64,000 nucleotides of DNA from a virus: positions 35,694-99,693 of the IMG/VR virus record IMGVR_UViG_3300023223_001973; one strand, 5' to 3'. Positions within the stretch are counted from its first letter, which is position 1, and each line of letters starts with the position of its first letter. Positions 8,788 to 34,752 of the stretch are shown here, piece after piece. Position numbers and translations under genes: made by a program. The notes beneath the pieces were generated by a model. The model had not been told where the DNA came from. It worked only from the letters and a program-made list of their open reading frames with translations, and did no database searches.

Positions 8788-10599
8788 ATGGCAGATGATT
8801 TCAAACTGTCGTTCAATCCCGCTAACCTTCTTCAGAAGATCTTTAGGCAGCCAGACGTTGTCAGAGCGGATGTTGTAACTGATAGGACTCCTTTGGGTCC
8901 TGGTGATGAACAGAGGTTAATGCGTTATGGCTTCTCAATGCAGGACCTTGGCTCTTTGGTGGCCAAAGAGACCCTGGTTAACTTTGAGCGTACGGCCCTC
9001 TATAGGGAGATTGATCGAGCTCTCCTATATCCGTTGATGAGTGCCGCTATGGAGCTCTATGCGGATGTGAGTACCAACTTCTCTCAGCTTCATAACTCTA
9101 CGGTCTGGGTAACAGGTGAGGGAAAGCATGCTAATGAAGTGACCAAGTTGTTTGAGAGGATTAACGTTGAGGAGCGCATCTTCGACTGGGCCTATAGTAC
9201 TGGGAGCTTTGGTGACTTGTTTGCCATAATTCACGCTCATCCTGGGCTTGGCATCCTCAGTGTTGAGGATGATGACCACCCTATTAACATCTCTCGTATT
9301 GACTATAATGGTCGCCTTGTTGGGTTCTTCGATACACCCTTTGGTCAGGCTAAAGCAGAGAGGGAGTTAAGACCTCCTTGGTCGATGGTTCACTTTCGTC
9401 TGCTTGGTGCTAAGCGCAAGCGGCCTATGTTTAATGATCCTCTGTATTCTGAATTCCGCACCGTCAGCATGATCGATCCTGATACCCGCCATATTACTGC
9501 TAGGTATGGTTCTTCTCTTCTTGGTAATGGTCTACCGACATACAAGCGTCTGCGCATGGCTGAGGACTCCTTACTCATAGCACGGCTGTCTAAGGGCCCT
9601 CTCCACTACGTTTATAAGGTGAAGGTGGAAGGTGATAATGCTCAGGCCATCGATGCCATCATGCAGAACTATGAGAACTTGCTTAAGAGGAGTAAGGCCA
9701 TTGATACCCAGCGGGGTGAGGCTGGTGGTCAAGCCAATTATGAGAACGTCTATGCTGCTCTTCCCAACGCTGAAGATGTGTTTCTGCCTGTCTGGGGTGA
9801 TGCTAAGAATGATCTTGTTATTGACAAGATGGGTGGCGAGACTGACATCAAGTGGATTAAGGATGTGGACGCTCTGAGGAGTCAGCTGGCTTGTGCTCTA
9901 CGTGTACCGCTTCAGTTGCTTGGTGGCTTTACGAGTGAGCTACCTGGATCTCTAGGTAGGAGTGCTATTGAGACTCTGGATATCCGGTTCGCTAGGTCTG
10001 CTCGTAGGTTACAGCGTGCTGTGATTGAGGGTTTATATCGTATAGCTCAGATTCACTTGTCCTATATGGGTCTATCTCCTGATACTAGGCACTTCGAGAT
10101 CCATATGGCTGAAACTTCCACGGCTGAGGAGGAAGAGCTCAAGGATGCCCTGGACAGGGGCGTTGACATCGTGGATCGCATGTATGAGATGACAATTAAG
10201 TTTCTGGGTGAGGAGATTGACAAGAAGGCTCTGTTGAACTATCTTAACCAGAAGATACTGAAGCTTAATGACTTTAATATTAATGACTTTATTGAGCAGA
10301 AGCCTACCGTATCGAAGGAGGGTCTGCCTCTTGAGACGGCTCCTCCTGATGCAGGTGAGTTGCCAGCAGAGGCTAGGCAGTATGCTAATGCCTTGCTTGA
10401 TACTATCTCTGAGCATAAGAATGGTAAGCAGAATGGTGGGCCGATGAAGGGCAAACACCGGGATGGTAGTTCGCAGTCTTCGGATCTTAAGGCCTATACC
10501 TATTATCAGAAGGGTCTATGGGAGAAGAGGTTTAAGGATCGTAAGGTGATGGTTACTGACTCTCGCGAGTCGGAAGGAGGAAGTGATGTCAACTCATGA
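8788..10599 (+). CDS. portal protein, T4 gp20-like
   Basis: YREIDRALLYPLMSAAMELYAD, YGSSLL, LRMAEDSLLIARLSKGP, EDVFLPV, LRVP; directly after terL. Confidence 0.88.
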   Translation: MADDFKLSFNPANLLQKIFRQPDVVRADVVTDRTPLGPGDEQRLMRYGFSMQDLGSLVAKETLVNFERTALYREIDRALLYPLMSAAMELYADVSTNFSQLHNSTVWVTGEGKHANEVTKLFERINVEERIFDWAYSTGSFGDLFAIIHAHPGLGILSVEDDDHPINISRIDYNGRLVGFFDTPFGQAKAERELRPPWSMVHFRLLGAKRKRPMFNDPLYSEFRTVSMIDPDTRHITARYGSSLLGNGLPTYKRLRMAEDSLLIARLSKGPLHYVYKVKVEGDNAQAIDAIMQNYENLLKRSKAIDTQRGEAGGQANYENVYAALPNAEDVFLPVWGDAKNDLVIDKMGGETDIKWIKDVDALRSQLACALRVPLQLLGGFTSELPGSLGRSAIETLDIRFARSARRLQRAVIEGLYRIAQIHLSYMGLSPDTRHFEIHMAETSTAEEEELKDALDRGVDIVDRMYEMTIKFLGEEIDKKALLNYLNQKILKLNDFNINDFIEQKPTVSKEGLPLETAPPDAGELPAEARQYANALLDTISEHKNGKQNGGPMKGKHRDGSSQSSDLKAYTYYQKGLWEKRFKDRKVMVTDSRESEGGSDVNS

Positions 10600-10888: not shown

Positions 10889-11262
10889 ACCCGGAGCTGT
10901 TAAACCAGGTCACTTCTGCAGAGAAGTATTTCGAGAACACTCGGTATCATAGGGAGTTAACTGCTGTTCTTGATGCGTTTAAGCGCGAGGATGAGGCAGA
11001 ACTGAAGGTATCCCTTAGCAAGTTACCGACGTACTCCGAGCTACTGAAGACGTTGATTCGGAAGCTTAAAGGTAAGTCGGTGTACAGTACCTTGAAACGC
11101 TTGTCTACGGGGAATCCAAGGAGTAAGTGGGATGCGTTGAAGGGGCTTACTTCTCTGGCAACTCATGCCTGTATTGAGTGTGAGAGGGGGAGTACTGAGT
11201 ATCGCTTGGTTTTAGCTCATCTTTACGAGAAGATTGGTGCTAGTCTGTTTTCTAAGGAGTGA
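10885..11262 (+). CDS. hypothetical protein (head module)
   Basis: 125-aa ORF with GTGA overlaps at both ends. Confidence 0.6.
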   Translation: MNPELLNQVTSAEKYFENTRYHRELTAVLDAFKREDEAELKVSLSKLPTYSELLKTLIRKLKGKSVYSTLKRLSTGNPRSKWDALKGLTSLATHACIECERGSTEYRLVLAHLYEKIGASLFSKE

Positions 11263-12962
11263 ACATGCAGGGTGACTTTCAGTCTTATATGCGTGAACAG
11301 GAAAGTATTGTTCCTCTTCCTCTGAGGCACCCTGATGGGAATAAGGTCAGGCCAATAGGTCTGGATGAGGCTGAAGGTGATGAACCCCCTGAGGCTGGTA
11401 ATGATGAGAAGGAGTTCTTTGGGTCTAAGGGGCCGGACCAGAACTTTTACTTCACCCGTGATGGTGAGGACCTCGTCATTATTGATGCTGAAGGCATCAT
11501 CGTATTCTCTGCCGAGCAGCGTGATATTCCCACAGAAGACCTTGTCGATTTCCTGATCTCTGCTGCCCGTGACCTTGAATTGGACGCTGTGGCAATGGAG
11601 GTTCTCCAGCGTTATGATCTGCTTGCTCCTCGCAAGGATGAAGAGCAACCTGATGTTGTTACTCCTCCGCGCAGAGATACGGGTGCTGAGGAACCTGACT
11701 TGGGTTCCCAGGGGCCAACTGAACCTGTTGAAGATCCTCCGATGCCTGAATCTCGTGTGAACGAGATAAAGAAAGAAGATCACCCTTACTACGCTGTGGC
11801 TATGGACTTTGTTCAGAAGTTCAATGATCTTGGTATCTCCGTTGATGTGCCTGAGGATACTATAGAGTTAGCAGGCCCTGGTGAGGAGTATGATCCTCAT
11901 GATACTGAGTATGGTACAGTTCATGAAGAGTCTATAATGCTGTATCGTCCTTCGGATACAGGAAATGTTGCGGATTCTATTAACATCCAGAGTGATGGAA
12001 TGGTCCATAGCTTGGGTGACTTTGGTCAGTTTAATAAGCAGATGTCTGTTGAGGAAGTGGCTGTAATGCTTGACCAGCATCTGGCAAGGCTCAAGGGTCA
12101 GTCCACCACTGAGCCTGCTATGCCAGAGGGTAAGGTACCTACCCACGCTCAGGATGATGAGAAAACCAAGAAGTCTCTCCTTGAGGAAGGTGAGCCTGTT
12201 GCTCCCTCTGAGGAGACTGATCTTGAGGATGAGGTAAAGCCCACTGAGACTCTCCCGAAGGAGAAGCTGGATGACGTGCCTGCTAAAGGTGCTGAAGCTA
12301 CTCCGGGTGCTTCTACTTCGGGAACTGAGCCTGATGCTATTCCTGCAGAAGCCCCTGCTGTTGAGGAGCCTGCTGTTGAGGTTCCTGTTGAGGGGAAGCT
12401 TCCCACTCTTCCTGTTAAGTCGGAAGAGCAGTTGATTAATCAGCTTCGGGAGGAGTTCTTGGAAGAGGGTGATGCCAAGGGTCAGACCCACTATCAAGCT
12501 TCGAGGTCTCAGCAGCAGAACAAGAACTCAGCAGATGCATCGGCTACGTCGGCTTCTAAGTCTGGTGACACTCCTTCCAGTGATGCGATGTCTCAGTCTA
12601 AGACGTCGGCTTCCAAGTCACAGCAGCAGAATGCTAACTCATCCTCCGCTAAGACCTCTTCTGCTATGAATACAGGTGAGTCTGGTGGAACGGCTGCGCA
12701 TCCGGGTGGTAAGTCCAAGCAGCAGAATGCTAATGCACCGGCGGCTTCTGACACGGCGGCTTCGAGGACTGGTGATCAACCCCCGAGTGATGCACTGGCT
12801 CAGGGTGGAGTGAGGACTCCAAAGTCTGGTCAGCAGAATACCAACAAGAAGGACGCTCCTGCTACATCTTCTCAGCGTGCTTCCAGTGAGCGTAGGCGTC
12901 GTCTGCGCATGAGGACTGCAGTTGAGCGTAGGAAACGTCGGTTAGCGAGGGAAAGTAAGTAG
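11259..12962 (+). CDS. acidic, low-complexity prohead core/scaffold-like protein with Arg-rich C-terminus
   Basis: Position before the protease; ESRVNE motif; S/Q/N repeats; tail RRRRLRMRTAVERRKRR. Confidence 0.55.
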   Translation: MNMQGDFQSYMREQESIVPLPLRHPDGNKVRPIGLDEAEGDEPPEAGNDEKEFFGSKGPDQNFYFTRDGEDLVIIDAEGIIVFSAEQRDIPTEDLVDFLISAARDLELDAVAMEVLQRYDLLAPRKDEEQPDVVTPPRRDTGAEEPDLGSQGPTEPVEDPPMPESRVNEIKKEDHPYYAVAMDFVQKFNDLGISVDVPEDTIELAGPGEEYDPHDTEYGTVHEESIMLYRPSDTGNVADSINIQSDGMVHSLGDFGQFNKQMSVEEVAVMLDQHLARLKGQSTTEPAMPEGKVPTHAQDDEKTKKSLLEEGEPVAPSEETDLEDEVKPTETLPKEKLDDVPAKGAEATPGASTSGTEPDAIPAEAPAVEEPAVEVPVEGKLPTLPVKSEEQLINQLREEFLEEGDAKGQTHYQASRSQQQNKNSADASATSASKSGDTPSSDAMSQSKTSASKSQQQNANSSSAKTSSAMNTGESGGTAAHPGGKSKQQNANAPAASDTAASRTGDQPPSDALAQGGVRTPKSGQQNTNKKDAPATSSQRASSERRRRLRMRTAVERRKRRLARESK

Positions 12963-12990: not shown

Positions 12991-14592
12991 ATGTTTCTTA
13001 ATGAACGGTTCCTGGTCAAGTCTGAACTTCTTGAGATGGAGACCAAGAACCTCCCTCAGGGTGTGCTTCTTCGTGTTACTTACCCCGTATGCAACATTGG
13101 GGAGAGGAACCACAACAACCGGATCTATGAGGTACAACTGTGGGAGCAAGTCCTGGCAGAGAAGGATCTAAAGGAGAAGCTTGCTGCTCGCACGCTCTTC
13201 GGTCATGCTGAGCACCCGGAAACCACAGCATCCAATGTGGAGAAGGTCTCCCATGTCATTACCAAGATGTGGCTGGATGAGGAGATTGGAAAGCTGAAGC
13301 AGACCTTCGAGGTCCTGGACACTCCTTATGGTCGTATTGTAGCCACTCTTCTGAATGCTAACTGTGGCCTGGGTTGCTCGACTCGTGCAGAGGGTGACCT
13401 GGAGGAGAAGGAAGACGACAAGGGCAAGTACCATCGCGTTATCCCTGAATCCTACCGCTATATTACTACAGACTTTACCGCTGATCCTTCTACGATTGGT
13501 GTATATCCCGAGAGTATTGAGAACCATCTGGTTAGTCAGGTTAAGGCTGGTATGGAAGCCAAGAAGATGGATCCAGCCTTTGCGTGTGCTCTGCTGGAGG
13601 GGATGAAGAGTAAGGATGCCAAGGTCCTCCTTGAGTCTATCAAGGAAATGCATGGTGGTGATGCACATTCTAAGCCTGCCTCAGACATGGAATCTCCACC
13701 TATGCCACCGGCAACCAATCCTGAAGCAGCTCTGGAAGCCATGTATACCTGTCCCAAGTGTGGCAAGGAAGCCATGTATGAGATCACCTCTGAGAAGATC
13801 AACTGCGAGTGTGGCTCCTTCATGAAGAAGAACGAGCAGTATGAGTCTCGCTTGGTCTTCGAGGACTTTGATGCTGCAGTGGCCTGGTTTACTGAGGCAT
13901 TTGCCAAGATTGCTGATGAGGAGCTTCAGGATAAGGTCAGGCAGGTTAAGGGTGCTCTGACTGAGAGCAGACCCTCTGCCATTTCCAAGCAGATGCGGTC
14001 ACTTCGTGGTCAACTTGCTGAGTCTAAGGCTGAACTCTCGGTCTTGGGTGAGATTGATGAGGAACGAGCCTCTGGTCTGATTGCTGCCATAAAGCAGGTT
14101 GCGGAATTAGAGGCACTCATGGCTACTGTGGAGTCCAAGTCCCATGAAGATAAGGAAGCTTTCGGAAGGAAGCTCATGAAGTCTCTTAAGGCTTCCATGA
14201 AGGAGAGACTTGCCACTGAAGCTACAAGCAGGCAGAAGTTAGAGGCTAAGTATAGTACAGTTTCTTCTGAGACTGGAACCTTAAGGGCAAAGATTGAGGA
14301 GCTTCAGGGGCAGGTAGCCACGCAGGCCAAAGCCCATAATCAGGAGCTTATCAAGAAGTACGCTCAGGTTACCGTGGAGAAGACAGGACTGAAGCTTTCG
14401 AAGCAGTTTCAAGCACTTCTTGAAAAGGCATCCTCGGAAACTGAAGTCGATAACATGCTTGATCGAGTCAGGGATGAAATAACTGAAGGGATGATACATT
14501 CTGCGATCCCTGCCCTGAAGGTTAAGCCTGATGCCTCGGAACCAAAGGATGTGATCTCGGAAAGTATTCACAGTGCTATGGAAGGTATGTAA
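12991..14592 (+). CDS. prohead protease (T4 gp21-like) fused to a Zn-ribbon and coiled-coil scaffold
   Basis: NHNNRIY, FGHAEHP, VSHVIT, LDTPYG, GCSTRAEG and DFTADPS motifs; long heptad-rich C-terminus. Confidence 0.88.
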   Translation: MFLNERFLVKSELLEMETKNLPQGVLLRVTYPVCNIGERNHNNRIYEVQLWEQVLAEKDLKEKLAARTLFGHAEHPETTASNVEKVSHVITKMWLDEEIGKLKQTFEVLDTPYGRIVATLLNANCGLGCSTRAEGDLEEKEDDKGKYHRVIPESYRYITTDFTADPSTIGVYPESIENHLVSQVKAGMEAKKMDPAFACALLEGMKSKDAKVLLESIKEMHGGDAHSKPASDMESPPMPPATNPEAALEAMYTCPKCGKEAMYEITSEKINCECGSFMKKNEQYESRLVFEDFDAAVAWFTEAFAKIADEELQDKVRQVKGALTESRPSAISKQMRSLRGQLAESKAELSVLGEIDEERASGLIAAIKQVAELEALMATVESKSHEDKEAFGRKLMKSLKASMKERLATEATSRQKLEAKYSTVSSETGTLRAKIEELQGQVATQAKAHNQELIKKYAQVTVEKTGLKLSKQFQALLEKASSETEVDNMLDRVRDEITEGMIHSAIPALKVKPDASEPKDVISESIHSAMEGM

Positions 14593-14625: not shown

Positions 14626-16116
14626 ATGAAGAATAATAACGAAGCTATTGCGGCAGCAGTACAGAGTCGCATGGATGAGATGACGAACCGTCGTTCAGCT
14701 CTGGTTAATAGCTGGGCCAAGTACGTCAACGCCGTGGATACCTACGTCAAGGAGAAGCGGGGTAACTCCCTGTCGGACTGGGAGAAGATGAACATCGCCC
14801 AGTGTCTCGAAAACGCTCTTATTGAGGGTGGGCTTCGCCAGAATGCCCTGTTCGAGACGACCTTCGCCGACAACATCACCTTCCTGGGCATTCAGCTGCC
14901 CGTGATTGCTGCCTTGCTGCCGTCTCTCGTGCTGAACGAGATCGGCATGGTGCAGGCTCTGGATCGCCGGCAGGGTGCGGTGTTCTATCTGGACCTGCAG
15001 TATGGTACCACGAAGGGTAACGTGGCCTCCGGAACGGACATGATCAACGCCCAGACGGGCCATGATCGGACCACGCAGGGTCGGAGGTTTGCTACGAACC
15101 GAATCAATCAAGAAGCCCTCGGCACTGGTGACGGATCGACGGCCACCTTCGCCGGGACTCTGGACTTCAAGCCCGTGAGAGTAGATGGTGACGTCACAGT
15201 GCTTCCTGATGGCGCCATTTCGATCACTGATGGTCTTGAGACCTTCACGGACTCCACGGGGAGTGGGACGCTCACTGGCGACCTTGGTGGCACGGGTACC
15301 ATCACATACGCCACAGGCGTGTTCAGCGTCACCTTTAACACCGCTCCTGTGTTGGCTGCCGTTGTCTCCGCGTCCTACCGCTTCAACATGGATCGGGATA
15401 CGACCGGGATCGGTGAGGTCAACGTCTCGATGCGGTCCGAGAATATTACCGCTGAGGACTTCAAGCTGCGGGCAAACTTCTCCCTGGGTGCAGCCATTGA
15501 CCTGGAGAAGGCACATGGGCTGAAGTTGGAGTCCGAGCTGGTCAAGTTCCTGGGTGGAGAGATCAAGTTCGAGATTGACCACTTGGGTATCGACGTGATC
15601 AGGGAAGCTGCGGAAGGGGCCAATGCAGCCACGGCGGTGGGTACCTGGACCGCTACCCCGACCGATGGACAGGAATGGCTCTGGAAGAAGTACGAGTTCA
15701 ACGACCAGATCGAAAAGGGCTCGAACTTCATCTTCGCCAAGACGTTGCGCGGGATGGCGACCTTCATCCTATGCGGAAACAACGTGGCGCGGGTATGCAA
15801 GCAGCTGACCCCGCACTTCAAGGCAGCCCCGGGTCTGGACAAGCAGAAGCCCACGGGCCCGATGGTTATCGGCACACTCGACGGCCGCACCGTGGTTCAG
15901 GACCCCTTCCTCCCGATCAACCGGTACTACCTGGGATTCAAGGGTGACAGTTACCTGTTCTCCGGCTTCATATATGCCCCATACATTCCGCTGTTCGCAA
16001 CCCCCACCCTGGTAACCGCTGACACCCTTGCCCAGAAGGGCTTCTTCAGTGCTGCCGGCTTCAAGATGATTAATGAAGGTCTGTACAACTTCGGCGATAT
16101 CGCAGGCCTGCTCTAA
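14626..16116 (+). CDS. major capsid protein, T4 gp23-like
   Basis: IGMVQAL, AVFYLDLQYG, KLRANFSLGAAIDLEKAHGL, EIKFEID, GFIYAPYIPL; strong SD AAGGAG; followed by a terminator. Confidence 0.93.
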   Translation: MKNNNEAIAAAVQSRMDEMTNRRSALVNSWAKYVNAVDTYVKEKRGNSLSDWEKMNIAQCLENALIEGGLRQNALFETTFADNITFLGIQLPVIAALLPSLVLNEIGMVQALDRRQGAVFYLDLQYGTTKGNVASGTDMINAQTGHDRTTQGRRFATNRINQEALGTGDGSTATFAGTLDFKPVRVDGDVTVLPDGAISITDGLETFTDSTGSGTLTGDLGGTGTITYATGVFSVTFNTAPVLAAVVSASYRFNMDRDTTGIGEVNVSMRSENITAEDFKLRANFSLGAAIDLEKAHGLKLESELVKFLGGEIKFEIDHLGIDVIREAAEGANAATAVGTWTATPTDGQEWLWKKYEFNDQIEKGSNFIFAKTLRGMATFILCGNNVARVCKQLTPHFKAAPGLDKQKPTGPMVIGTLDGRTVVQDPFLPINRYYLGFKGDSYLFSGFIYAPYIPLFATPTLVTADTLAQKGFFSAAGFKMINEGLYNFGDIAGLL

Positions 16117-19939: not shown

Positions 19940-22900
19940 ATGGATGCAGCTACTTCGCTTGAAGGTTTGCTTCAGGGGCTCATGACTGAGCTTGAAACGC
20001 AGGATCTCCACCCTGTTGCTGTTGTAGAGCAGGATGACATGGATCTTCCGCGGGATGCTCTTCCTGATGAGGAAGAGGAGCCTGAAGAGGATGATATTCC
20101 TGTTCCTGAAGAGCCAGAGGAGCTTGCTCCCGAGCTTCCTGAGATCACAGATGCCCTCGCCCAGGAGTTCTACGAGAAGTTAGAGGTACCCGATACCATC
20201 GAAGTCTCTGCTCTTAAGTCGGGCATGGAGGCTGAGCTTGAGCATTGGGAGACCTCTGGTGAGAGCATGGAAGTGGTTGCCCGCATTGCTGTTGATCACT
20301 TGCTTGAGTCTCCTACCTACTATGAAGCTCTGGCTGCTATGATAGCTGACCTTGAGGCTGAGCAGGGCCCGACCGATCCTGAAGAGCCTCTTGAAGAGCC
20401 AGAGGAACCTGTTGAAGAACCTGAAGAGGAAGAGGAGGAGCCTACTGAGTCTCGTGTTCAAGAGCAGGCTGGTTCTAAGTATGCTATGGGTGAAGTGGGG
20501 GAGTGGGATGCTATTAGTGTTAACCTGACTTCTGACCGGTTGGAGTTTACTTCTCATGATGAGAGTGAGGGTCCTGAGGGTTATGACTTCACGATGAAAA
20601 AGGAAGGGAACGAGTGGGTGGTTGATAGGGAGGAGACTTCTTATAATGTTCAAGGCAGTCATGTTCTTTGGCTTATAGCTAGTGGGTATAAGGATTGGGA
20701 TGAGGCAGGGGAGAAGGCTCCAAAGCGGGATGAGGATGTCCGTATTCCTGATGCTAAGATGTTCGATGCTGTGAAGCAGATGGCAGAGGAAGAGGCAGCC
20801 TCTCTTACTTTGGGATCTTCTGAGGGACCTGAAGAGGCCCGTATTCGTGAGCAGGCCGAGGGTGAGTCTGAGAATGTGTTAGGGCTCGAATGGAAGTACC
20901 CGAAGCCTGTTGCCCGCGTGGATCAGCTTGTCGCAGAGTATGGTCAGCCTCAGACTGTGGCTGATGATCGGGTAATCTGGACTGAAGGCATTGAACCCTT
21001 TAGCGAGATTAGGGTTGTTGATGAGGAGATACCTCATGATAAGCCCAAGCCTCATGCTGACTATCTTTATGCCTCCATGCCTTATAATGTTCCTGAGGAT
21101 AAGGTGGCTGACGTTGAGAAGATCAGTAAGTCGGTAATGTATGATCCTCTCAAGCAGGTCATTACAGCTCGCTGTGATAACATGGCTGCCAATGTTACAA
21201 GCCTGTATCTTGCCCAGCAGATAGCTGATGGTGAGATGACTGCTGATGAAGCCTCTGAGCAGTATGGTGACACCATTATGAAGGCTATGGAGGATGAGGC
21301 ACTGGTTCAGGACATGAAGGGCAAGCTCAAGCCTATGATGGGTGAACTACCTCCTGAGGATGGTGAGCCTGAAGAACGTATCGTGAATCCCATGATTGGT
21401 GCTAATGAGGCTAAGGGTGCCGTCAAGGGCCTTGCCAAGAAGGCTGGCCGCTCTGTTAAGAAGGCTGAGGAGATCTGGAAGTCCGTCAAGAAGGACTATC
21501 TCACGCGCAACAAGAAGACCGAAGATGAGATGACTGATCGTGACTGGGAGAAGGTTACTGGAGCAGTCAAGCACTCTCTCGGTCTTAAGGCTGGTGAGTC
21601 TCGTGTAAGTGAAGACAAGGGCTGGATTGCGTTTGGGAAGAACCATAATGAGTATGTCCTCCTAAGTGAGGATAGGGAGCAGTTCTGGGCTGGTAATGAG
21701 AAGGGCTGGACCAAGACCTATGAAGAGGCTAAGGTATTCTCCTCTCAAGAGGAGGCTGAGAAGGCTGCTAAGTCACTAGGCCTTGATCCCTATGAGTCTC
21801 GCGATAAGGAGTCCCGTGCTGATGAACTCCAGTCTGGTATGTTTATTGAGGGCCATGAGGGTGATGACATTAAGGAGCCCGACATTCCCAGGGATTTTGA
21901 TGAGGAAGAGTTTGAGGCCTGGCAAGAGGCTGGTGGTACCTCTCTAGCTGATCTTTCCTTAGAACAGCAGAAGAAGCTGTTTCAGGAGGAAGATTCTGGG
22001 GGACCCCCCGCTGACGAGACTAAGGGACGCGGATTTGGCTCTTCAGGAGTCTCTCGTGAGGAGGAGATGAAGGCTGAGGGAGCAGTCATGGATGCTGGTA
22101 TCAAGTATGATACCAAGAATTATGACATCGCTAATGGTCGCCTTGAGTTTGCACAGTCTTTACCTGGTCGAGGAGCTTCAGCTGATGTTGTCGCTGTCTG
22201 GGACCTGAAGGCTCATAAGCTTATTGACATGGAGGAAGGTAGAGTTCCTAATGTTACAGCTCCTGAGGCTGACAAGATTAAGGACCTTCGTGAACAGGGT
22301 TATATGCCTTTAGCCAAGGGTCTTACGCAAGAGGATGCTGATAATATGGCCAAGGTGAAGGATGGTGTGGTCTCTCCTGATCCTGAGAACCCTGAGAAGT
22401 TTATGGTCCTGGTTAAGGAATCTCTGTGGGAGGAAACCCCTTCTGAGGAAGGTCCTCCTAAGGAGGATAATGGTCCCCGTATTGAGTTCCGTAGTGAGGC
22501 TGAGGAGGATCTCTGGGATACTGAGCTGCTGGGTCAGATCTCGGATGGGGCTTATGAGAACTATCGTGGATCTCATTATCGGCACTGGGATCAGCTTCCT
22601 ACAAGGGTTAACCCTGATCTACGTCGTCCGCGGGTGGTTAACAGTCAGTATAAGAATTACTTCCCATTTCATAAGGACCTGATGGATGCCGTTGGTCCGC
22701 GGATGTTGAAGATTGTCAGGCGGACCATGCCTGAGGCTACTTCGGAGGATCTCCGCAAGATGCTGGTTCATATCAGCAATGCTGTGAGATACCCCGTTCG
22801 TGAGGTTAGAGAATCGATGCGTGAAGGATTGACCACTACTCCTAATGATGTTGCTAAGTCCGGTGGTGGTACCTTTGCCAAGAAGGGTGAGACTGTCCAA

Positions 22901-23932
22901 GCTGAGAGGATCTCTGATGAGTCTGGTGGCACGACATTGATCCTGACCAACCCTGAAGAGGGTACTCGTGAGATCCTCCAGTTTGAGTCTGAGCAGGCTA
23001 TGTCAGATGCTGGCTGGAAGGTAGAGGAGACCAAGATGAATGAGGAAGGCATTATACCTCCTGTGAAGCAAGGTAAGGACGAACCTCATCCTATCAAGGA
23101 TCCCATTGCATCCGATGTGGATACCTTGAAGGATAAGGACATGGAGGATGAGCGTGTGAAGCCTGCTGAGATGGACTTTGATGAGCAGGGTAAAATGTAT
23201 ATGGATGCTGTCCTCAGCACAGAGGGTTTGCCTGGCGCTGGACCGTCCGGTCAGGAAGGTACAACTGAATCTATGGAAGAGGCAGACGTACCTAAAGTAG
23301 CACTGCCTCGCGGGTTCCCAAAGTTGGATCAGGACACTTGGGAGAAGGCTGTTGCCTCGCTGCACAAGCGAGGTACCTTGAAGAAAGGTGATAAATACAA
23401 TTATGCAGCTCTTATAGCTGTGTATAGGAATATGGAGGCTAAGGCTGAGAGAGAAACAATGACGCCTACTAAGGAATTCCGGGATCTTCATGGGTTACTC
23501 TCTGGTTTAGGAGGTCCTGTGAATGAGCAGGGTAACTTCGCTGTTGCTCGTCCTGATGATATTGGGACTACTGAGGTTAGGGGAGATACATACTATCAGA
23601 CCTATGGTGGACCGGGTGGTAGTGAGCCTCCCATTCCTGAGTGGCTTCCCTCGGCTGTTGTCGAGCAGTTCAAACAAGCTTGGACGGATGAGTTTAAGGC
23701 CCAGGCTGAGGCAGAAGCTGGGGAGGGTGAGGACCTTGACGATGTGATGTTTAACATGTCTCAGACTACTTATGATGACGCCTCTGGGTTCCTTGTTGTG
23801 GGACCAAGTATGTCTGAGGATTTCTCAGGTGTTGATCACTGGACAGTGGGCCCCTTCAAGGCTCAGGTTAAGCTGCCTGGCTCTGAGGAAGAGTCAGCTG
23901 TTGAGGTTTGGGGTGGTATCTCTGGGGTGTAG
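19940..23932 (+). CDS. large acidic modular polyprotein, candidate internal virion protein; includes a DUF5661-like module
   Basis: 1330 aa; GMEAELEH...IAVDHLLESPTYY module; unrelated modules separated by ESRVQE, EARIRE, ESRVSE, ESRADE, ESLWEE and similar. Confidence 0.7.
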   Translation: MDAATSLEGLLQGLMTELETQDLHPVAVVEQDDMDLPRDALPDEEEEPEEDDIPVPEEPEELAPELPEITDALAQEFYEKLEVPDTIEVSALKSGMEAELEHWETSGESMEVVARIAVDHLLESPTYYEALAAMIADLEAEQGPTDPEEPLEEPEEPVEEPEEEEEEPTESRVQEQAGSKYAMGEVGEWDAISVNLTSDRLEFTSHDESEGPEGYDFTMKKEGNEWVVDREETSYNVQGSHVLWLIASGYKDWDEAGEKAPKRDEDVRIPDAKMFDAVKQMAEEEAASLTLGSSEGPEEARIREQAEGESENVLGLEWKYPKPVARVDQLVAEYGQPQTVADDRVIWTEGIEPFSEIRVVDEEIPHDKPKPHADYLYASMPYNVPEDKVADVEKISKSVMYDPLKQVITARCDNMAANVTSLYLAQQIADGEMTADEASEQYGDTIMKAMEDEALVQDMKGKLKPMMGELPPEDGEPEERIVNPMIGANEAKGAVKGLAKKAGRSVKKAEEIWKSVKKDYLTRNKKTEDEMTDRDWEKVTGAVKHSLGLKAGESRVSEDKGWIAFGKNHNEYVLLSEDREQFWAGNEKGWTKTYEEAKVFSSQEEAEKAAKSLGLDPYESRDKESRADELQSGMFIEGHEGDDIKEPDIPRDFDEEEFEAWQEAGGTSLADLSLEQQKKLFQEEDSGGPPADETKGRGFGSSGVSREEEMKAEGAVMDAGIKYDTKNYDIANGRLEFAQSLPGRGASADVVAVWDLKAHKLIDMEEGRVPNVTAPEADKIKDLREQGYMPLAKGLTQEDADNMAKVKDGVVSPDPENPEKFMVLVKESLWEETPSEEGPPKEDNGPRIEFRSEAEEDLWDTELLGQISDGAYENYRGSHYRHWDQLPTRVNPDLRRPRVVNSQYKNYFPFHKDLMDAVGPRMLKIVRRTMPEATSEDLRKMLVHISNAVRYPVREVRESMREGLTTTPNDVAKSGGGTFAKKGETVQAERISDESGGTTLILTNPEEGTREILQFESEQAMSDAGWKVEETKMNEEGIIPPVKQGKDEPHPIKDPIASDVDTLKDKDMEDERVKPAEMDFDEQGKMYMDAVLSTEGLPGAGPSGQEGTTESMEEADVPKVALPRGFPKLDQDTWEKAVASLHKRGTLKKGDKYNYAALIAVYRNMEAKAERETMTPTKEFRDLHGLLSGLGGPVNEQGNFAVARPDDIGTTEVRGDTYYQTYGGPGGSEPPIPEWLPSAVVEQFKQAWTDEFKAQAEAEAGEGEDLDDVMFNMSQTTYDDASGFLVVGPSMSEDFSGVDHWTVGPFKAQVKLPGSEEESAVEVWGGISGV

Positions 23933-23934
23933 TT

Positions 23935-24813
23935 ATGGAAGAGTTTGAGCCCCTCTTTAACTTTCTAATGGAAGGAAACGTCGGACCTCTCATTGAGCAG
24001 GAACCTGCCACTGGGATGAAGCAGGACCGTCTTCCACGTGAGGAGGCTCTCAAGCGCTTCGACCTTGTGAAGGCCACTCTTGTTGAGTTGGGGATTGACG
24101 CTGATGCCATAGAACCTGGTGGCTCCATACGACGGGGTAAGGACACTGTTGGTGATCTTGATGTTGGCATCTTCGACTATGACAAGATAAGCAAAGGATT
24201 CTACAGCCGGTTTGTTGAGACTATGAAGGCTAAGGGTCATGAGGTTACGCCTAAGACCTTGGGAGCCTCTCAGACCTCTCTTCTCATTGATGGGTTTCTG
24301 GTTGAGCTGAAGAAGTTCCCTACGGAGTCTTACGGTGCGGCCATGATCTTTATTACGGGTCCTGGCCAGTACAACCTTGACATGAGGGGCTGGGCTAAGG
24401 GTAAGGGCTACAAGCTGAATCGCTATGGTCTCTTTGATGCTGCCTCTGGTAAGATGTATCCCTCCGACAAGGAGGAAGGGATCTACAAGCAGTTGGGCAT
24501 CCCTTATGAGCAACCTAGTGCAAGGCTTAAGTTTAGTCCTCCACGTGAGGAGAGACCTGCAGACCCGAAGCCTGATGAGACTCAGATACCTGAAGAGCTC
24601 TGGAACAAGGTCCCTGATGACGTTAAGGCTAAGCTGAAAGACTTCGATGTTCCTGCCGTTGATGAGAACGGGATTCGACTGGGCAAGGACTTCCTCTGGA
24701 ACAAGAAGGTCAGGCAGAGGTACCATATCACATACTCCCAGGCGAAGAGGTCTGGTCAGGAGATGAAACCCAAGTTTGAGCTTCCTGCGGAGTTCAAGCT
24801 GGATCGCTATTAG
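23935..24813 (+). CDS. polX: minimal family X DNA polymerase (palm + thumb)
   Basis: GGSIRRGKDTVGDLD, FITGPGQYNLDMR, GYKLNRYGLF, EEGIYKQLGIPYEQPSAR. Confidence 0.85.
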   Translation: MEEFEPLFNFLMEGNVGPLIEQEPATGMKQDRLPREEALKRFDLVKATLVELGIDADAIEPGGSIRRGKDTVGDLDVGIFDYDKISKGFYSRFVETMKAKGHEVTPKTLGASQTSLLIDGFLVELKKFPTESYGAAMIFITGPGQYNLDMRGWAKGKGYKLNRYGLFDAASGKMYPSDKEEGIYKQLGIPYEQPSARLKFSPPREERPADPKPDETQIPEELWNKVPDDVKAKLKDFDVPAVDENGIRLGKDFLWNKKVRQRYHITYSQAKRSGQEMKPKFELPAEFKLDRY

Positions 24814-24821
24814 GAGAGGTT

Positions 24822-25127
24822 ATGTCCTTTGAAGAGATTTATGAGAAGGTAGAGGAAGCTCGACCTACTCAGGCTGACTATGAGAGATTCCAGCAGGAGT
24901 ATAAAACTTTTCTTGATGGATCTGGCCTAGATGGTGACATCAATAATGTCGCTGATGAGGTATTTTATGAGATATGGCCGGTCTCTGAGGAGGAAGAAGG
25001 AAAAGCTGTAGACTTTCTTCAGAGGCTTGCTTCTAAGTATAAAATGCGGTATAGCCACTATGGTACGAAGGGTGATGGACAGTTTCATAACCATTATGTA
25101 GCATGGGACTTACAGTGGATGGTTTGA
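24822..25127 (+). CDS. leader-tagged small protein (candidate internal protein)
   Basis: N-terminus MSFEEIYEKVEE; SD GGAG. Confidence 0.7.
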   Translation: MSFEEIYEKVEEARPTQADYERFQQEYKTFLDGSGLDGDINNVADEVFYEIWPVSEEEEGKAVDFLQRLASKYKMRYSHYGTKGDGQFHNHYVAWDLQWMV

Positions 25128-25139
25128 TAGGAGGTTGTT

Positions 25140-25706
25140 ATGGAGTTTGGTGATATCTTCGAGAAGGTGAACGAGGTTAAGATCAACGAGGGTTGGGAAG
25201 CCTACCCACTTCCTAAAACTCTAGAAGATCTAATGTATACCCTTAAGGGTATGAAAGTGGGTGAGTATGCTATTACTGATGTGGTGAAGAATAAGGGTGG
25301 AGAGGGTGTTACCATTACTGGTGAATGGGGTCCGGAGAAGGTTGATTTGTACCCTTGGGGTCCTAATGCTCTTGAGCTCAGTCTTTCTGGTGATATTTAC
25401 GAAGAGGGTGAGTATCCTGCTTCCCCAGAAAGGGGTCCTAGACTCAACCAGGATGCTAGTCTTTTTCAGGAAATGTTTGACGATATGAGGAACTTTGATG
25501 TTATTGATCAGACTAACTCTGATGTCTCTGTTGACAATATTGAGCGGCTTGGGTTTGGTGAGTATAAGACTGGTGAGGATGAAGCTGGTGAACCTGAGTA
25601 TACTATTCCTGTTGAGGTTCTTCAGAAGAGAATGGAAGAGGCCGACACTGGAGTTACTGAAGAGGCTGTATTAGATTTCATTGATGATCTTTTGACTTCT
25701 AGGTAG
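25140..25706 (+). CDS. leader-tagged acidic protein (candidate internal protein)
   Basis: N-terminus MEFGDIFEKVNEVKINE; SD AGGAGG. Confidence 0.7.
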   Translation: MEFGDIFEKVNEVKINEGWEAYPLPKTLEDLMYTLKGMKVGEYAITDVVKNKGGEGVTITGEWGPEKVDLYPWGPNALELSLSGDIYEEGEYPASPERGPRLNQDASLFQEMFDDMRNFDVIDQTNSDVSVDNIERLGFGEYKTGEDEAGEPEYTIPVEVLQKRMEEADTGVTEEAVLDFIDDLLTSR

Positions 25707-25714
25707 GATCAACT

Positions 25715-26269
25715 GTGTACTTTGATGAAATCTTCGACAAGGTGAATGAAGACTCTAATTACGTCTACACCGCTCAGGTAGACCTTGGCACCAATCGTAA
25801 AGGCTATCAGCAAATGGGCCCATACACTGTGCCTGAAGGGAAAACCTTTGCTGGTGATAATTATCCATCTGAGCAGGACTATATTGCTGATCTTATAGCA
25901 AAGGGTTATGATGAGACTGGGCAACTGAGGAATGTTACTGATCCTCGTTATAGTGTTCAATATGAGGCTCAAGTGAATGAGACTAACATGATAGGCTTCG
26001 CAGCTGGCACTCTCCCTCTTAAGGTTACTCAGGAGCAAGAGACAAGGGAGGTATGGACCTGTCCTCATTGTGATAAGGAAATTCAAGAGAAGACTCTCTT
26101 CTGCGAGGACTTGGATTCTAAGGAATACACTCATAGTCCTTGTAAAGGAAAGGTTTCTCTACCACAGACCACGGAGGGTGAGGATGATATTACTCGCTTC
26201 CTAAGTGGCAAGGATAGTCATGGCCAGGGTGAGGATGTATCCTTTTATGCTATGACCCCGAGAGGTTGA
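25715..26269 (+). CDS. leader-tagged protein with Zn-finger (candidate internal protein)
   Basis: N-terminus MYFDEIFDKVNE; CPHC...HSPC. Confidence 0.7.
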   Translation: MYFDEIFDKVNEDSNYVYTAQVDLGTNRKGYQQMGPYTVPEGKTFAGDNYPSEQDYIADLIAKGYDETGQLRNVTDPRYSVQYEAQVNETNMIGFAAGTLPLKVTQEQETREVWTCPHCDKEIQEKTLFCEDLDSKEYTHSPCKGKVSLPQTTEGEDDITRFLSGKDSHGQGEDVSFYAMTPRG

Positions 26270-26270
26270 T

Positions 26271-26552
26271 GTGTTTGGTGAGCTATATGAAGCAATTTTA
26301 GAGAAGCGTGGAACTGGAAAGAGGGCTCGTGTCCCTGGTATACTAGATGTACCAAGGGGTAGATCTGCCTTTAGTATGGGGATTGGTCATTATGTGAAGT
26401 TGGCCAAGCAGCATGGTAAGTCGAAGATCCTGAGTGCTCTCAAGAACCTGGAGCAGCTGAATAAGATACCGTTTCCTAAGTCTTCAGCTGCTGCGAATAA
26501 ACTGATTAACCGGCTTACAGCCTCTTCCAAGTGGAAGAAGCTCAAGAGGTAA
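26271..26552 (+). CDS. leader-tagged highly basic small protein
   Basis: MFGELYEAILE followed by a K/R-rich body. Confidence 0.65.
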   Translation: MFGELYEAILEKRGTGKRARVPGILDVPRGRSAFSMGIGHYVKLAKQHGKSKILSALKNLEQLNKIPFPKSSAAANKLINRLTASSKWKKLKR

Positions 26553-26553
26553 T

Positions 26554-26826
26554 ATGTTTCACGGCCTGTTTGAACGTTTGAGTGAGGATCAAGAGCACGG
26601 CCGCGTTCTCCTCATTAAGATGAATGAAGAGGGTTATGAGTCTCTGATGCCTATGCTACAGCATCTAGAGAATGCTGGCAACGTTGGACACTCTCTATCT
26701 GTGGAAATGGATGATGACAAGTATGGGTGGGATGGTGACGGTAATGCTAGGATCTTGGGAATTATTGACTTAACTGCTGAAGAGGTCAAAGCGGCTTCTG
26801 AAGCTGAGCCTGTTGAAGGAGAGTAA
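26554..26826 (+). CDS. leader-tagged small acidic protein
   Basis: MFHGLFERLSE; GNVGHS...GWDGDG motif. Confidence 0.65.
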   Translation: MFHGLFERLSEDQEHGRVLLIKMNEEGYESLMPMLQHLENAGNVGHSLSVEMDDDKYGWDGDGNARILGIIDLTAEEVKAASEAEPVEGE

Positions 26827-26827
26827 G

Positions 26828-28114
26828 ATGTCGGACAAGAATCCTAACCTTGGTTTCCAGGGCTTGCTTGAGTCCATGAATGCTGTGGAGCTCAATGAAG
26901 AGACTCTCCCTGTGGAAGAGGCCCGTATTAATGAAGTCTTAACTTCTGATGAGCGGAAAGCTATTAATGATTGGCTTGAGCCTTATGACGCTCGGTTGAT
27001 GCCGCATGACTCCTCCGCTGAAGATGATGTGATGATCTCAACTAAGCGTCTTGAGAGTCCTGAGCAGTTTTCTAAGCTCCAGAGTGAGGCTGCGAAACGC
27101 TGGCCTCGCTTTGAATGGGATCAGGGTGGAGATTTCTTAGTGGGTAATGTGAAGGAATCCCGCGTTGATGAGGCTGTCCGTCAGCGTCGTAAGTGGTATC
27201 CTGATGGTACTGTTGAGGAAGAGATTGAGTGGGATGAGGACCACCATATGGCTGCTATGGCTGATGGTGCTAAGCTCCCTGAGAGTCTCGTGAAGGAGAA
27301 CGCTGAGGAGCTGATCGCCAAGTTCGTCCAGTCCGAGCATAAGAAGGACAAGGATCGTTATACCGTTGAGTATGGTGGTCAAACCTACACTGGCGAGAGT
27401 GTTGATGATCTCATCGAGCAGCTGACCTCTAAGGGTCCTGACGAGTCCAAGGTGGAGGAGAATGAGGAATATGATCCTAAGCAAACTCGGGGGGCAAATG
27501 CCGCTAATTGGATTAGGAACCGTTCTCGCGAGACAGGTGGGTGGGTCAATATCCCTTGGGGTGAAGGTGTTCGCTTTGGTTTGACCGATGTTGTTAAGGA
27601 TCAGGTTCCTGAGGGGGAGAAGATTGTTGGTGATCCTTCACAAGAGTGGATTCTTAATCAACCAGATGCTGAGTATGGTGATTATATGTATGAGCCTCCT
27701 CAGACTTTAACAGGGATTTATCTTCCTTATTTGGATGATTTTCAGGGAGATCCTTCTTTTGAGGAGATGATGACTGCCTTGAAAAGGGCAAATGAGAGTC
27801 AGGTAATTGAGCAAGGACCAGGAAGGAGGGGTGGCCCTGGGAGCACTCCTATAGTTCAGGTACCATTTGGTGCTGGTAGTGGCCCTGGAAGGAAAGATGG
27901 TCTGTTGTCGATCTCTGTTGTTAATGACGCTGATCCTCCTGAGTCCTGGCAATGGAACCTGAACATTTTGGTATCTACTGGCGATAGTGTTGAGTTGACG
28001 GGCGTGACTCCGGATTCGATTGAGACATTGATGATTCAGCTTGGACAGGCTAAGGATGAGCTTGCTAAGCAGCCTCCCTTTAAGGACAAGGACGAGTCTC
28101 TCGACTATGCTTAA
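26828..28114 (+). CDS. second modular acidic polyprotein (candidate internal protein)
   Basis: GFQGLLESMNAVELNE leader; EARINE, ESRVDE, ESLVKE, ESKVEE and ESQVIE junctions. Confidence 0.7.
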   Translation: MSDKNPNLGFQGLLESMNAVELNEETLPVEEARINEVLTSDERKAINDWLEPYDARLMPHDSSAEDDVMISTKRLESPEQFSKLQSEAAKRWPRFEWDQGGDFLVGNVKESRVDEAVRQRRKWYPDGTVEEEIEWDEDHHMAAMADGAKLPESLVKENAEELIAKFVQSEHKKDKDRYTVEYGGQTYTGESVDDLIEQLTSKGPDESKVEENEEYDPKQTRGANAANWIRNRSRETGGWVNIPWGEGVRFGLTDVVKDQVPEGEKIVGDPSQEWILNQPDAEYGDYMYEPPQTLTGIYLPYLDDFQGDPSFEEMMTALKRANESQVIEQGPGRRGGPGSTPIVQVPFGAGSGPGRKDGLLSISVVNDADPPESWQWNLNILVSTGDSVELTGVTPDSIETLMIQLGQAKDELAKQPPFKDKDESLDYA

Positions 28115-28538
28115 AGATCTTCTCGAAAGACTGACTGAGCAGGAGGAGCCTGTACAAGAACATCTCCCCAAGGCTTGGGGTATTCTATACGCCAACCCCA
28201 ATCCTGATGACTCTCGCAAGCAGTGCCTTAACTGTATAATGTGGTCTAGGGACAACCGTTGCAGCATTCATGAGTCTGATGAGGAGACTACAGAGGATCA
28301 CACCTGTGGGTACCATGTATATGGTAATCCCATGGAGGAGAGGATGGTCCATGAGGGTATGGATGCTGTAACTCCAGACCTGTCTGGCCTTGAACTCATT
28401 CCTGGTGGTACCAGCTGCGACATCTGTGAGTACTATGTGGAGGACTCTTCAACATGCCGTGTGGCTGTTGGAGATGATGGCAAACACTTGCAGGTAGCCC
28501 CCAAGGGTTGTTGTGCACGATGGGATGCTAAGGAGTAG
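28107..28538 (+). CDS. leader-tagged Cys-rich protein with two HiPIP-like repeats
   Basis: MLKDLLERLTE; CLNC..W...C...C and CDIC..Y...C...VAPKGCCARW. Confidence 0.6.
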   Translation: MLKDLLERLTEQEEPVQEHLPKAWGILYANPNPDDSRKQCLNCIMWSRDNRCSIHESDEETTEDHTCGYHVYGNPMEERMVHEGMDAVTPDLSGLELIPGGTSCDICEYYVEDSSTCRVAVGDDGKHLQVAPKGCCARWDAKE

Positions 28539-33951: not shown

Positions 33952-34752
33952 ATGGAGAATGAGGACACTTTCCTCGAGTTGGAGCTGCCTTCTAAGCTGT
34001 TACCCTATCGAGACCTGAAAGTAACCAAGATTGAGGCACGGGTGATGAGGGGGTCAGATGAGAAGATTCTGGCTGAGATGACCTCGGATAACATCGAGCG
34101 TCAGACTCTTACCTTATTGACCCGAATCATACGAGGAATTGATCCTGCTGAGTTAACGCTTGGTGATCGTCTGGTGTGCATGCTCTGGAACACTATTAAC
34201 TCTTATACCAAGGACTATCCGATTGATGGTGCCATGTGTGCTCACTGTCTTAAGAAGAGTGATGGCATCATACTGGACTTACAGGAGCTGGAGACGGTAG
34301 ACCTCCCTGATGACTACCTTGAGCCGTTCCCTGTGGAGTTGCCAGTTTGTGGTCAGAAGGTTATGATGCGGAGCTATCGAATCAAGGATGAGCTCCAGTT
34401 CAATCGGTATGAGAAGAATGCTACGGCTGAGCAGGATGATATCTGGCTCTATAAGCTGGCTCTCAGCATTGTTGATGATAAGACAGTATGGGATAGGGTG
34501 GAGTGGCTGAAGACACAGTCTACTAAGGATCTTGCTATGATGAGGGCCTTTCATGAGAAGTACTCTCATGGAGTGAAGCTTATCTCTAAGTTCACCTGTA
34601 CTCATTGTGAGGAGGAATCTCCGACGGAGGTTCCCTTTCGTCCCCAGTTATTTATTCCGGATGGTGCCACTGTTGCCAGATCTGTTGGAGCGGAACTTCG
34701 CCCTAATGTACCATCTAAAGATCCCAATCCAGTACCTGGAGCAGTTGGATAG
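33952..34752 (+). CDS. baseplate hub assembly / tail chaperone (T4 gp26-like)
   Basis: LELPSK, DEKIL, LTLGDR, CAHC and CTHC Zn pairs. Confidence 0.8.
   Translation: MENEDTFLELELPSKLLPYRDLKVTKIEARVMRGSDEKILAEMTSDNIERQTLTLLTRIIRGIDPAELTLGDRLVCMLWNTINSYTKDYPIDGAMCAHCLKKSDGIILDLQELETVDLPDDYLEPFPVELPVCGQKVMMRSYRIKDELQFNRYEKNATAEQDDIWLYKLALSIVDDKTVWDRVEWLKTQSTKDLAMMRAFHEKYSHGVKLISKFTCTHCEEESPTEVPFRPQLFIPDGATVARSVGAELRPNVPSKDPNPVPGAVG

Follow-up and report, generated by a model that had tools for sequence, protein, structure and literature searches.

A candidate capsid cargo polyprotein with recurring junction peptides in an uncultured phage with a T4-type head

Introduction

Can a tailed phage make the proteins that it packs into its head as one long chain and have its own prohead protease cut them apart? 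The question is raised by an open reading frame (ORF) of 1330 amino acids (aa) at positions 19940-23932 of the DNA analysed here, a stretch of 64,000 nucleotides (the window) that comprises positions 35,694 to 99,693, the final 64 kb, of the 99,693-bp IMG/VR virus record IMGVR_UViG_3300023223_001973. Polyproteins are generally associated with RNA viruses and retroviruses and lie outside the standard picture of tailed phages. An initial annotation of the window had described the ORF as a string of unrelated modules, punctuated by a protease-like junction peptide, that a single leader would deliver to the capsid and a protease of the T4 gp21 type would release there. The CheckV completeness of the record is about 41%, which at 99.7 kb points to a jumbo phage of roughly 240 kb.

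Proteases of the gp21 family cut after glutamate (Glu) at very short motifs, and in T4 a leader of 10 residues is enough for loading into the head, with processing determinants at leader positions 8 and 10 (PMC9026906, PMC5694885, PMC3012670). Processing in T4 is prevented by Asp in the P1 position (PMC9026906).

The pattern of modules and junctions is real and non-random. Judging from the sequence, we regard cleavage at the junctions as likely, and we consider it probable on balance that the gene encodes a capsid-targeted cargo polyprotein that is cut by the prohead protease.

The junction motif

The reading frame was confirmed to be open over all 1330 aa, and each of the eight motif strings picked out initially was found at exactly its reported nucleotide position. 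The features along the chain are given below, together with a second ORF of the same kind; pLDDT is the predicted local distance difference test score of the AlphaFold2 models.

19940..23932, + strand: whole putative polyprotein ORF, 1330 aa, 148 kDa, isoelectric point 4.4, Glu 14.4%
19940..19990, + strand: N-terminal leader, aa 1-17, amphipathic, ending Met-Thr-Glu; candidate capsid-targeting sequence by its resemblance to other leaders
20195..20341, + strand: DUF5661 (PF18905) module, aa 86-134; Pfam 49.1 bits against a cut-off of 27
20447..20464, + strand: junction 1, ESRVQE, aa 170-175, canonical 6-mer; block pLDDT 41
20486..20812, + strand: module C, aa 183-291; homology to P0095, pLDDT 60-77
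20834..20851, + strand: junction 2, EARIRE, aa 299-304, canonical 6-mer; short inter-module helix, pLDDT 54-71
20867..21346, + strand: module A, aa ~310-469, widespread uncharacterised domain; homology, pLDDT 94-98
21401..21577, + strand: basic three-helix unit, aa 488-546; pLDDT 90-97, homologous unit in L037
21596..21613, + strand: junction 3, ESRVSE, aa 553-558, canonical 6-mer; block pLDDT 38, position conserved in L037
21794..21826, + strand: junction 4, ESRDKESRADE, aa 619-629, weakest site, no hydrophobic P3; pLDDT falling from 70 to 38
22217..22417, + strand: small module ending ...KFMVLVK (KFMV module), aa 760-826; matches P0003, L037 and L036
22418..22435, + strand: junction 5, ESLWE-E, aa 827-832, 5-mer form; pLDDT falling from 63 to 48
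22457..22804, + strand: module B, aa ~840-955; stand-alone homologues, pLDDT 79-98
22811..22825, + strand: junction 6, ESMRE, aa 958-962, 5-mer form; starts a low-confidence stretch, pLDDT falling from 75 to 46
23027..23044, + strand: junction 7, ETKMNE, aa 1030-1035, Thr variant; block pLDDT 32
23267..23281, + strand: junction 8, ESMEE, aa 1110-1114, 5-mer form; pLDDT 31-50
23282..23929, + strand: C-terminal segment, aa 1115-1330; helical stretches in the AlphaFold2 model, aa 1120-1173 and 1238-1275
26813..28114, + strand: second, smaller polyprotein-like ORF, 433 aa, with five canonical junctions by motif count

Three of the eight sites are thus canonical 6-mers, three are 5-mers, one is a Thr variant and one lacks a hydrophobic P3 residue; the proposal that the junctions end in or near hydrophobic-x-Glu holds for most of them and fails for junction 4. 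The plain string [LIVM]-x-E was found at chance level in the 1330-aa protein (34 observed, 37.9 in shuffles), which makes the bare T4 rule uninformative when taken alone. The strict 6-mer E[SA].[VI].E, in contrast, was observed 3 times where composition-matched shuffles gave 0.38, and the 6-mer and the 5-mer form E[SA]h.E combined 8 times against 1.86 expected. The pattern was partly set post hoc, and its strict form can be derived from an independent source, the 433-aa ORF, in which E-[SA]-x-[VI]-x-E was observed 5 times against 0.08 expected, at a spacing of 40-115 aa. When all 121 ORFs of the 99.7-kb record were counted, the motif occurred 18 times in the 21 ORFs of the head block (window positions 10000-30200; 4.0 expected) and 8 times in the other 100 ORFs (6.4 expected). 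The enrichment is confined to the head block, indicating that the motif belongs to head-region proteins and is not a matter of genome composition.

The junction could in principle be a DNA recombination scar left by module exchange, or a chance string in a Glu-rich protein, and indeed modules are clearly shuffled between relatives (see below) and Glu makes up 14% of the protein. At 18 junctions, however, the synonymous codons differ (GAG/GAA, CGT/CGC, GTT/GTA/GTG), with Ser encoded by both of its codon families (TCN and AGT). Since the silent positions vary freely, selection acts on the peptide and not on a DNA signal; a recombination signal at the DNA level was therefore rejected, and the explanation as a whole, which we hold to be very improbable, is largely refuted. 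Chance is further countered by the shuffles (0.38 and 0.08 against 3 and 5 seen in the two ORFs) and by the rest of the genome, which stands at expectation for the motif.

Modules and their homologues

The modules were delimited by searching 1.84 billion representative proteins with aa 170-1330 in HMMER; the 1190 hits obtained fell into separate modules. At least six distinct modules, each with its own set of homologues, were recognised. A BLAST self-comparison of the protein showed no internal repeats, in agreement with the view that the modules are mutually unrelated, and the recurring motif is therefore not a by-product of duplicated units. Internal repeats were discarded as a candidate on the same grounds, including the pair of basic helical units that had been taken for relatives: both are predicted to be helical, but BLAST yielded no alignment between them.

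For three modules, stand-alone or terminal homologues were found whose ends meet the junctions, as had been proposed as a check. Module C is 43% identical to the final 114 residues (aa 162-275) of P0095, a protein of 278 aa whose C-terminus falls within about 10 aa of junction 2. The KFMV module, i.e. the 67 residues before junction 5, aligns in BLAST to the extreme C-terminus (aa 1003-1082 of 1085) of P0003, a metagenomic protein of 1085 aa, and the P0003 alignment of module B starts one residue past junction 5. Module B (aa ~840-955), first noticed as an ELLGQISDGAYEN unit, proved to be a homology-defined domain. It occurs alone as gp666 of Bacillus phage G, a stand-alone 123-aa gene product encoded among small hypothetical genes, and as P0011 (122 aa), the homologous proteins being 101-122 aa long; moreover, it is present in 19 viral contigs, mostly in ORFs of 110-290 aa that lack the motif. 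In P0143, a junction follows module B at the position equivalent to junction 6.

The unit first recognised by its YGQP...ARCD pattern (module A) was likewise established as a domain by homology. Among its hundreds of homologues many are free-standing proteins of 180-260 aa, and the near-invariant columns are Glu, His, Pro, His, Asp, Ser, Asp, Arg-Cys and Tyr. The family is large and absent from Pfam (more than 1000 representative hits overall in the HMMER search), and its bacterial members often carry signal peptides, occur as tandem copies or are fused to GSDH, HbpS-like or DUF285 domains. An alignment-based search for module A relatives in IMG/VR viral contigs found none.

Beyond this lineage, the motif was also found in other large metagenomic proteins that contain module A, with 26 occurrences against 1.3 expected in P0002, 7 against 1.1 in P0151 and 5 against 0.9 in P0043; bacterial-type module A proteins have zero junction motifs. 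Nine of 45 occurrences of module A have a junction within the preceding 60 aa, compared with a rate of 0.077 for background windows; P0002, P0043 and P0047 are among the proteins with a junction ahead of the module. P0002, a protein of 3246 aa from a 21-kb contig of an ENA metagenome, has a leader-like N-terminus and 29 E-[SD]-[LIVM]-x-E strings at a spacing of 55-324 aa, mostly Glu-Ser-Leu-Asp-Glu followed by Ala. Its module A is 43% identical to that of the 1330-aa ORF, and some of its units are paralogous. Loci for P0002, P0003, P0043/P0151 and P0047 were looked for in viral, genome and metagenome collections and none were found; P0151 also had no tblastn match among phage records.

The DUF5661-like unit (~20210-20330) is a genuine Pfam match, above the gathering threshold, and is embedded in a strongly acidic stretch (aa 18-175, net charge -52). 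It was the only credible match when the whole protein and six segments were compared with Pfam up to E = 5. PHROGs holds no family for the 1330-aa protein, tblastn of the protein against 50,697 phage records matched phage G gp666 only, and a word-indexed protein search (with the whole protein at near or shorter lengths and the DUF5661 part at longer ones) returned only the query itself. A search for homologues of the C-terminal segment (aa 1115-1330) found none.

Structure models

Two AlphaFold2 models, of aa 160-830 and aa 820-1330, were built from separate module-specific alignments. The confident domains are aa 310-469 (pLDDT 94-98), aa 488-546 (90-97) and aa 840-959 (79-98), with domains of moderate confidence elsewhere and predicted disorder in aa 1036-1109, ahead of junction 8. 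All eight listed sites were found in low-confidence linkers or at domain edges and none inside a confident domain, which bears out the expectation that the motifs would separate folded units; a ninth motif-like string (aa 659-663) lies within a moderately confident helix.

A Foldseek search of both models against the PDB gave nothing at E <= 0.001. VIA-align gave weak ties, none strong enough to name a fold: Z was up to 7.1 for the three-helix unit, with many helical proteins, up to 4 for module B, and about 5-5.5 for module A with YbjN/type-III-chaperone-like folds, which is under the noise level stated for the tool. In the ESM Atlas, module A fell into unnamed clusters.

Head genes, protease and leaders

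By its predicted head genes the phage is an uncultured lineage with a T4-type head, the capsid protein being at most about 32% identical to that of any isolated phage. The head genes (for the portal, a 567-aa ORF, the protease and the capsid protein) lie on the strand of the 1330-aa ORF and 5' of it. The ORF itself is situated in a late structural operon, with the head genes on one side and small genes with similar leaders on the other.

8788-10599, same strand as the 1330-aa ORF: T4-type portal (Portal_T4, E 6.7e-26)
12991..14592, + strand: prohead protease, gp21/S77-like N-terminal domain with a coiled-coil scaffold-like tail (phrog_207, E 2.4e-28)
14626..16116, + strand: gp23-type major capsid protein (PF07068, E 3.6e-39)
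14806-14823, + strand: predicted capsid-protein maturation site, aa 61-66, Glu-Asn-Ala-Leu-Ile-Glu, by conservation

The phrog_207 match upholds the earlier assignment of a gp21-type protease to this phage. The product of 12991-14592 has 533 aa, of which the N-terminal third is a head-maturation protease and the remainder coiled coil, and it has conserved blocks in common with proteins of relatives. The protease domain was taken to cover aa ~1-215. These relatives were found via the capsid protein (54-62% identity) and have kept the gene order. In two of them, L002 (7302-9992) and L003 (7233-9935), the protease has about 900 aa, with extra modules between the protease domain and the coiled coil that include zinc-ribbon-like CxxC pairs and have motif-like strings near them.

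The predicted maturation site of the capsid protein is conserved as Glu/Asp-Asn-Ala-Leu/Met-x-Glu in L002 and L003. Its spacing, Glu-x-x-hydrophobic-x-Glu, is the same as that of the junctions in the three phages compared, which would fit what is known of cutting by gp21-type proteases. With the cut predicted after aa 66, the site (aa 61-66) is also close to residue 65, where the T4 capsid protein is cleaved.

Within the head block, the 567-aa ORF (11259-12962) has one canonical junction (aa 164) after a Pro-rich linker, as well as a long low-complexity region rich in Gln, Ser, Asn and Ala and a strongly basic, Arg-rich C-terminal tail. On the other side of the 1330-aa ORF, eight consecutive small genes (23935-28538) have unrelated bodies and similar amphipathic leaders that end in hydrophobic-x-Glu, like the capsid-targeting sequences of T4. 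The first of them (23935-24813) encodes a minimal Pol X-type nucleotidyltransferase (Pfam matches to palm and thumb). In L002 and L037, genes that lie downstream of the orthologue of the 1330-aa ORF also begin with leaders of this kind.

Residues 1-17 of the 1330-aa protein resemble the leaders of these eight genes and those of L002 genes, and this amphipathic segment is a candidate capsid-targeting leader. For the single targeting leader suggested at the outset, what the sequence shows is a resemblance, and a loose one.

Could the protein instead be packaged whole, as a virion or internal protein of several domains that is left uncut in the manner of 'polyvalent' proteins, with the recurring peptide as a linker or docking element, for instance for contact with the scaffold or portal? 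Multidomain phage proteins that are packaged whole are known, the N4 virion RNA polymerase among them (PMC5512222), acidic Ser-rich strings are natural linker sequences, and a motif-like string can sit within a folded helix. Several observations, however, speak against such a protein: the motif ends in hydrophobic-x-Glu, the rule of the gp21 family; its spacing is that of the maturation site conserved in the capsid protein; it is restricted to proteins of the head block; and it coincides with natural protein ends in homologues. In addition, Pfam finds no catalogued polyvalent-protein domain and no embedded peptidase. We consider packaging of the uncut protein unlikely.

Positional orthologues in related phages

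Positional orthologues of the 1330-aa ORF have 444 aa (L002), 534 aa (L036) and 1186 aa (L037). The L002 orthologue consists of a leader, an N-terminal DUF5661 (54.5 bits) and two 5-mer motifs. In the L037 orthologue, four strict motifs were counted against 0.26 expected, and seven against 1.0 when 5-mers are included. Three modules of the 1330-aa ORF, namely the three-helix unit, DUF5661 and the KFMV module, recur in it in another order, and junctions border each of them: a canonical junction directly follows the three-helix unit (aa 752-822), as in the 1330-aa ORF, and the KFMV module starts right at a junction end both in L037 (aa 1002-1048) and in L036 (aa 333-383). Shuffled modules flanked by the junction motif, as would be expected of the proposed polyprotein, were thus seen in L037 and also in L036. 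Judged from these alignments, modules move between relatives and the junction stays at the module borders.

DUF5661 had been a candidate for a fixed N-terminal targeting head. This is ruled out by its position at the C-terminal end of the L037 orthologue (53.2 bits), as opposed to near the N-terminus in the 1330-aa ORF. In a further relative, G001, the three-helix unit is found in a separate 201-aa ORF (34127-34732; L004 1264-1869) upstream of the head genes.

The occurrence of variable modules at a fixed locus (1330, 1186, 534 and 444 aa) suggests rapid evolution in an arms race. Large variation in gene length among relatives would also suit a scaffold or core component that is cut for clearance from the prohead, like T4 gp22, gp67 and gp68 or the long propeptides of phiKZ and SPN3US, and is not delivered as cargo. 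Multi-site cutting into small, removable fragments is a known role of such sites (PMC5694885, PMC10052503), and the protein is highly acidic with long disordered stretches. Yet several of the pieces are confident, compact domains, homologues are free-standing outside head modules (phage G gp666, and module A in bacterial proteins), and the protease already has a scaffold-like coiled-coil tail. A role as scaffold seems quite unlikely to us.

Discussion

We prefer the explanation that the chain is cargo, and the following course of events is proposed. The 148-kDa precursor would be taken into the core of the assembling prohead by way of the short amphipathic leader at its N-terminus, in the manner of T4 internal proteins. 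There the gp21-type serine protease would act on exposed junctions of the form E-[S/A]-x-[V/I/L/M]-x-E or E-S-[L/M]-x-E and cut behind their final Glu, that is, after Glu 17, 175, 304, 558, (629), 831, 962, 1035 and 1114. This would yield about nine pieces of 7.8-28 kDa, among them modules A, B and C, the three-helix unit and DUF5661, together with acidic or disordered spacers. The spacers (aa 18-85, 135-175 and 1036-1109) may be expelled from the capsid, as are the propeptides of T4, and the folded pieces would stay with the DNA and probably be ejected into the host; one may speculate that small fragments pass the tail more easily. Packaging, the cuts, retention of the fragments and any effector function are what we infer from the sequence.

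Every in-silico check that had been proposed and was run came out in favour of the polyprotein reading, with the relatedness of the helical units and junction 4 as the parts that did not hold. Several observations nevertheless weigh against it. The first group concerns the motif. Its definition was refined after the data had been seen, the eight sites are heterogeneous and junction 4 (aa 619-629) has no hydrophobic P3; acidic linkers can be expected to be richer in Glu/Ser strings than a shuffle of the whole protein implies; and enrichment was modest in the records of two relatives (14 against 9.9 and 7 against 2.8). A motif-like string also lies inside a helix of the stand-alone 201-aa ORF of G001, from which it follows that the string alone cannot specify cutting. 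As about 42% of the modelled residues have a pLDDT below 50, the landing of any one site in a linker is not very improbable, and the placement of the sites is supportive, not decisive. The second group concerns the protease and the cargo: the Pfam Peptidase_S77 match of the protease (23.6 bits) is below the curated cut-off of 27 and a phmmer search of solved structures, started from the protease domain, did not retrieve T4 gp21; the leader matches those of its neighbours loosely; the protein is strongly acidic, unlike the basic internal proteins of T4; and the phage is uncultured and known here from its sequence alone.

If the junctions are cut, the system would extend loading by a T4 leader and gp21 from one protein per gene to a true polyprotein. 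The sites would then provide a simple sequence rule by which the packaged and injected proteome of uncultured large phages might be predicted, modules A, B and C and DUF5661 would be likely first-minute factors of host takeover or anti-defence, and the gene would offer a natural design for bringing several foreign proteins into T4-type capsids from one construct. More tentatively, and with somewhat less than even confidence, we suggest that phages with T4-type heads widely use exchangeable 'beads-on-a-string' cargo polyproteins, in which unrelated small effectors, some of them taken over from bacteria (module A) or from free-standing phage genes (module B), would stand between extended prohead-protease sites of the form Glu-Ser-(x)-hydrophobic-x-Glu, and one leader would load from about nine (1330-aa ORF) to about 30 (P0002) proteins, with a content that turns over fast between close relatives.

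Comparison with known systems

The initial annotation had called the strategy rarely described for tailed phages. This agrees with the literature searched, in which no paper on tailed-phage cargo polyproteins with a consensus prohead-protease junction was found, the coverage of that literature being incomplete; there are, however, precedents both for head proteins that are cut after Glu at several sites and for multidomain polyvalent proteins that are packaged into capsids.

The T4 internal proteins IPI-III and Alt (PMC9026906, PMC3012670) are similar in their setting, with a T4-type portal, protease and gp23 capsid protein and a cluster of diverse cargo genes. The likeness extends to a short N-terminal leader, a candidate one here, that ends in hydrophobic-x-Glu, and to predicted cutting after Glu inside the prohead. 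The cargo of T4 differs in that each gene encodes one protein, cut once near its N-terminus and in Alt near the C-terminus as well, whereas here one precursor has about eight candidate internal sites between unrelated folded modules, and the recognition string here is longer than that of T4, with Glu at P6 and Ser or Ala at P5. Homology to IPI-III or Alt was not detected with Pfam, PHROGs or tblastn against the 50,697 phage records.

The phages phiKZ, 201phi2-1 and SPN3US, with a protease of the S80 type (PMC5694885, PMC10052503), are likewise jumbo phages whose head proteins are cut after Glu at several sites per substrate. Their extra sites, however, are found in propeptides at the N-terminus; these are degraded, and a single mature protein from the C-terminal part remains. 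The motif of these phages is [S/A/G]-x-E. In the 1330-aa protein the candidate sites are spread over aa 170-1114, not just over a propeptide at the N-terminus, and separate folded domains.

Polyvalent proteins (Iyer et al. 2017, PMC5512222) resemble it in joining 2-15 unrelated domains, in their occurrence in portal-terminase phages (here a portal is encoded upstream) and in extensive shuffling, and they are thought to travel with the DNA (PMC5512222). They contain catalogued effector domains and often an embedded zincin-like peptidase with which they process themselves, as opposed to DUF5661 as the only Pfam domain here. The present protein is predicted to be processed in trans, at junctions of regular consensus, by the prohead protease.

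Among the viruses of eukaryotes, retroviral Gag-Pol and the polyproteins of picornaviruses and potyviruses are cut by a viral protease at a consensus, and in retroviruses this takes place inside the assembling particle. The likeness is one of analogy only, since the protease fold is another one here, the genome is DNA, expression is gene by gene and the products would be accessory cargo, not the central proteins of replication or structure. We read the 1330-aa gene as a variation on the T4 system of targeting leader and gp21.

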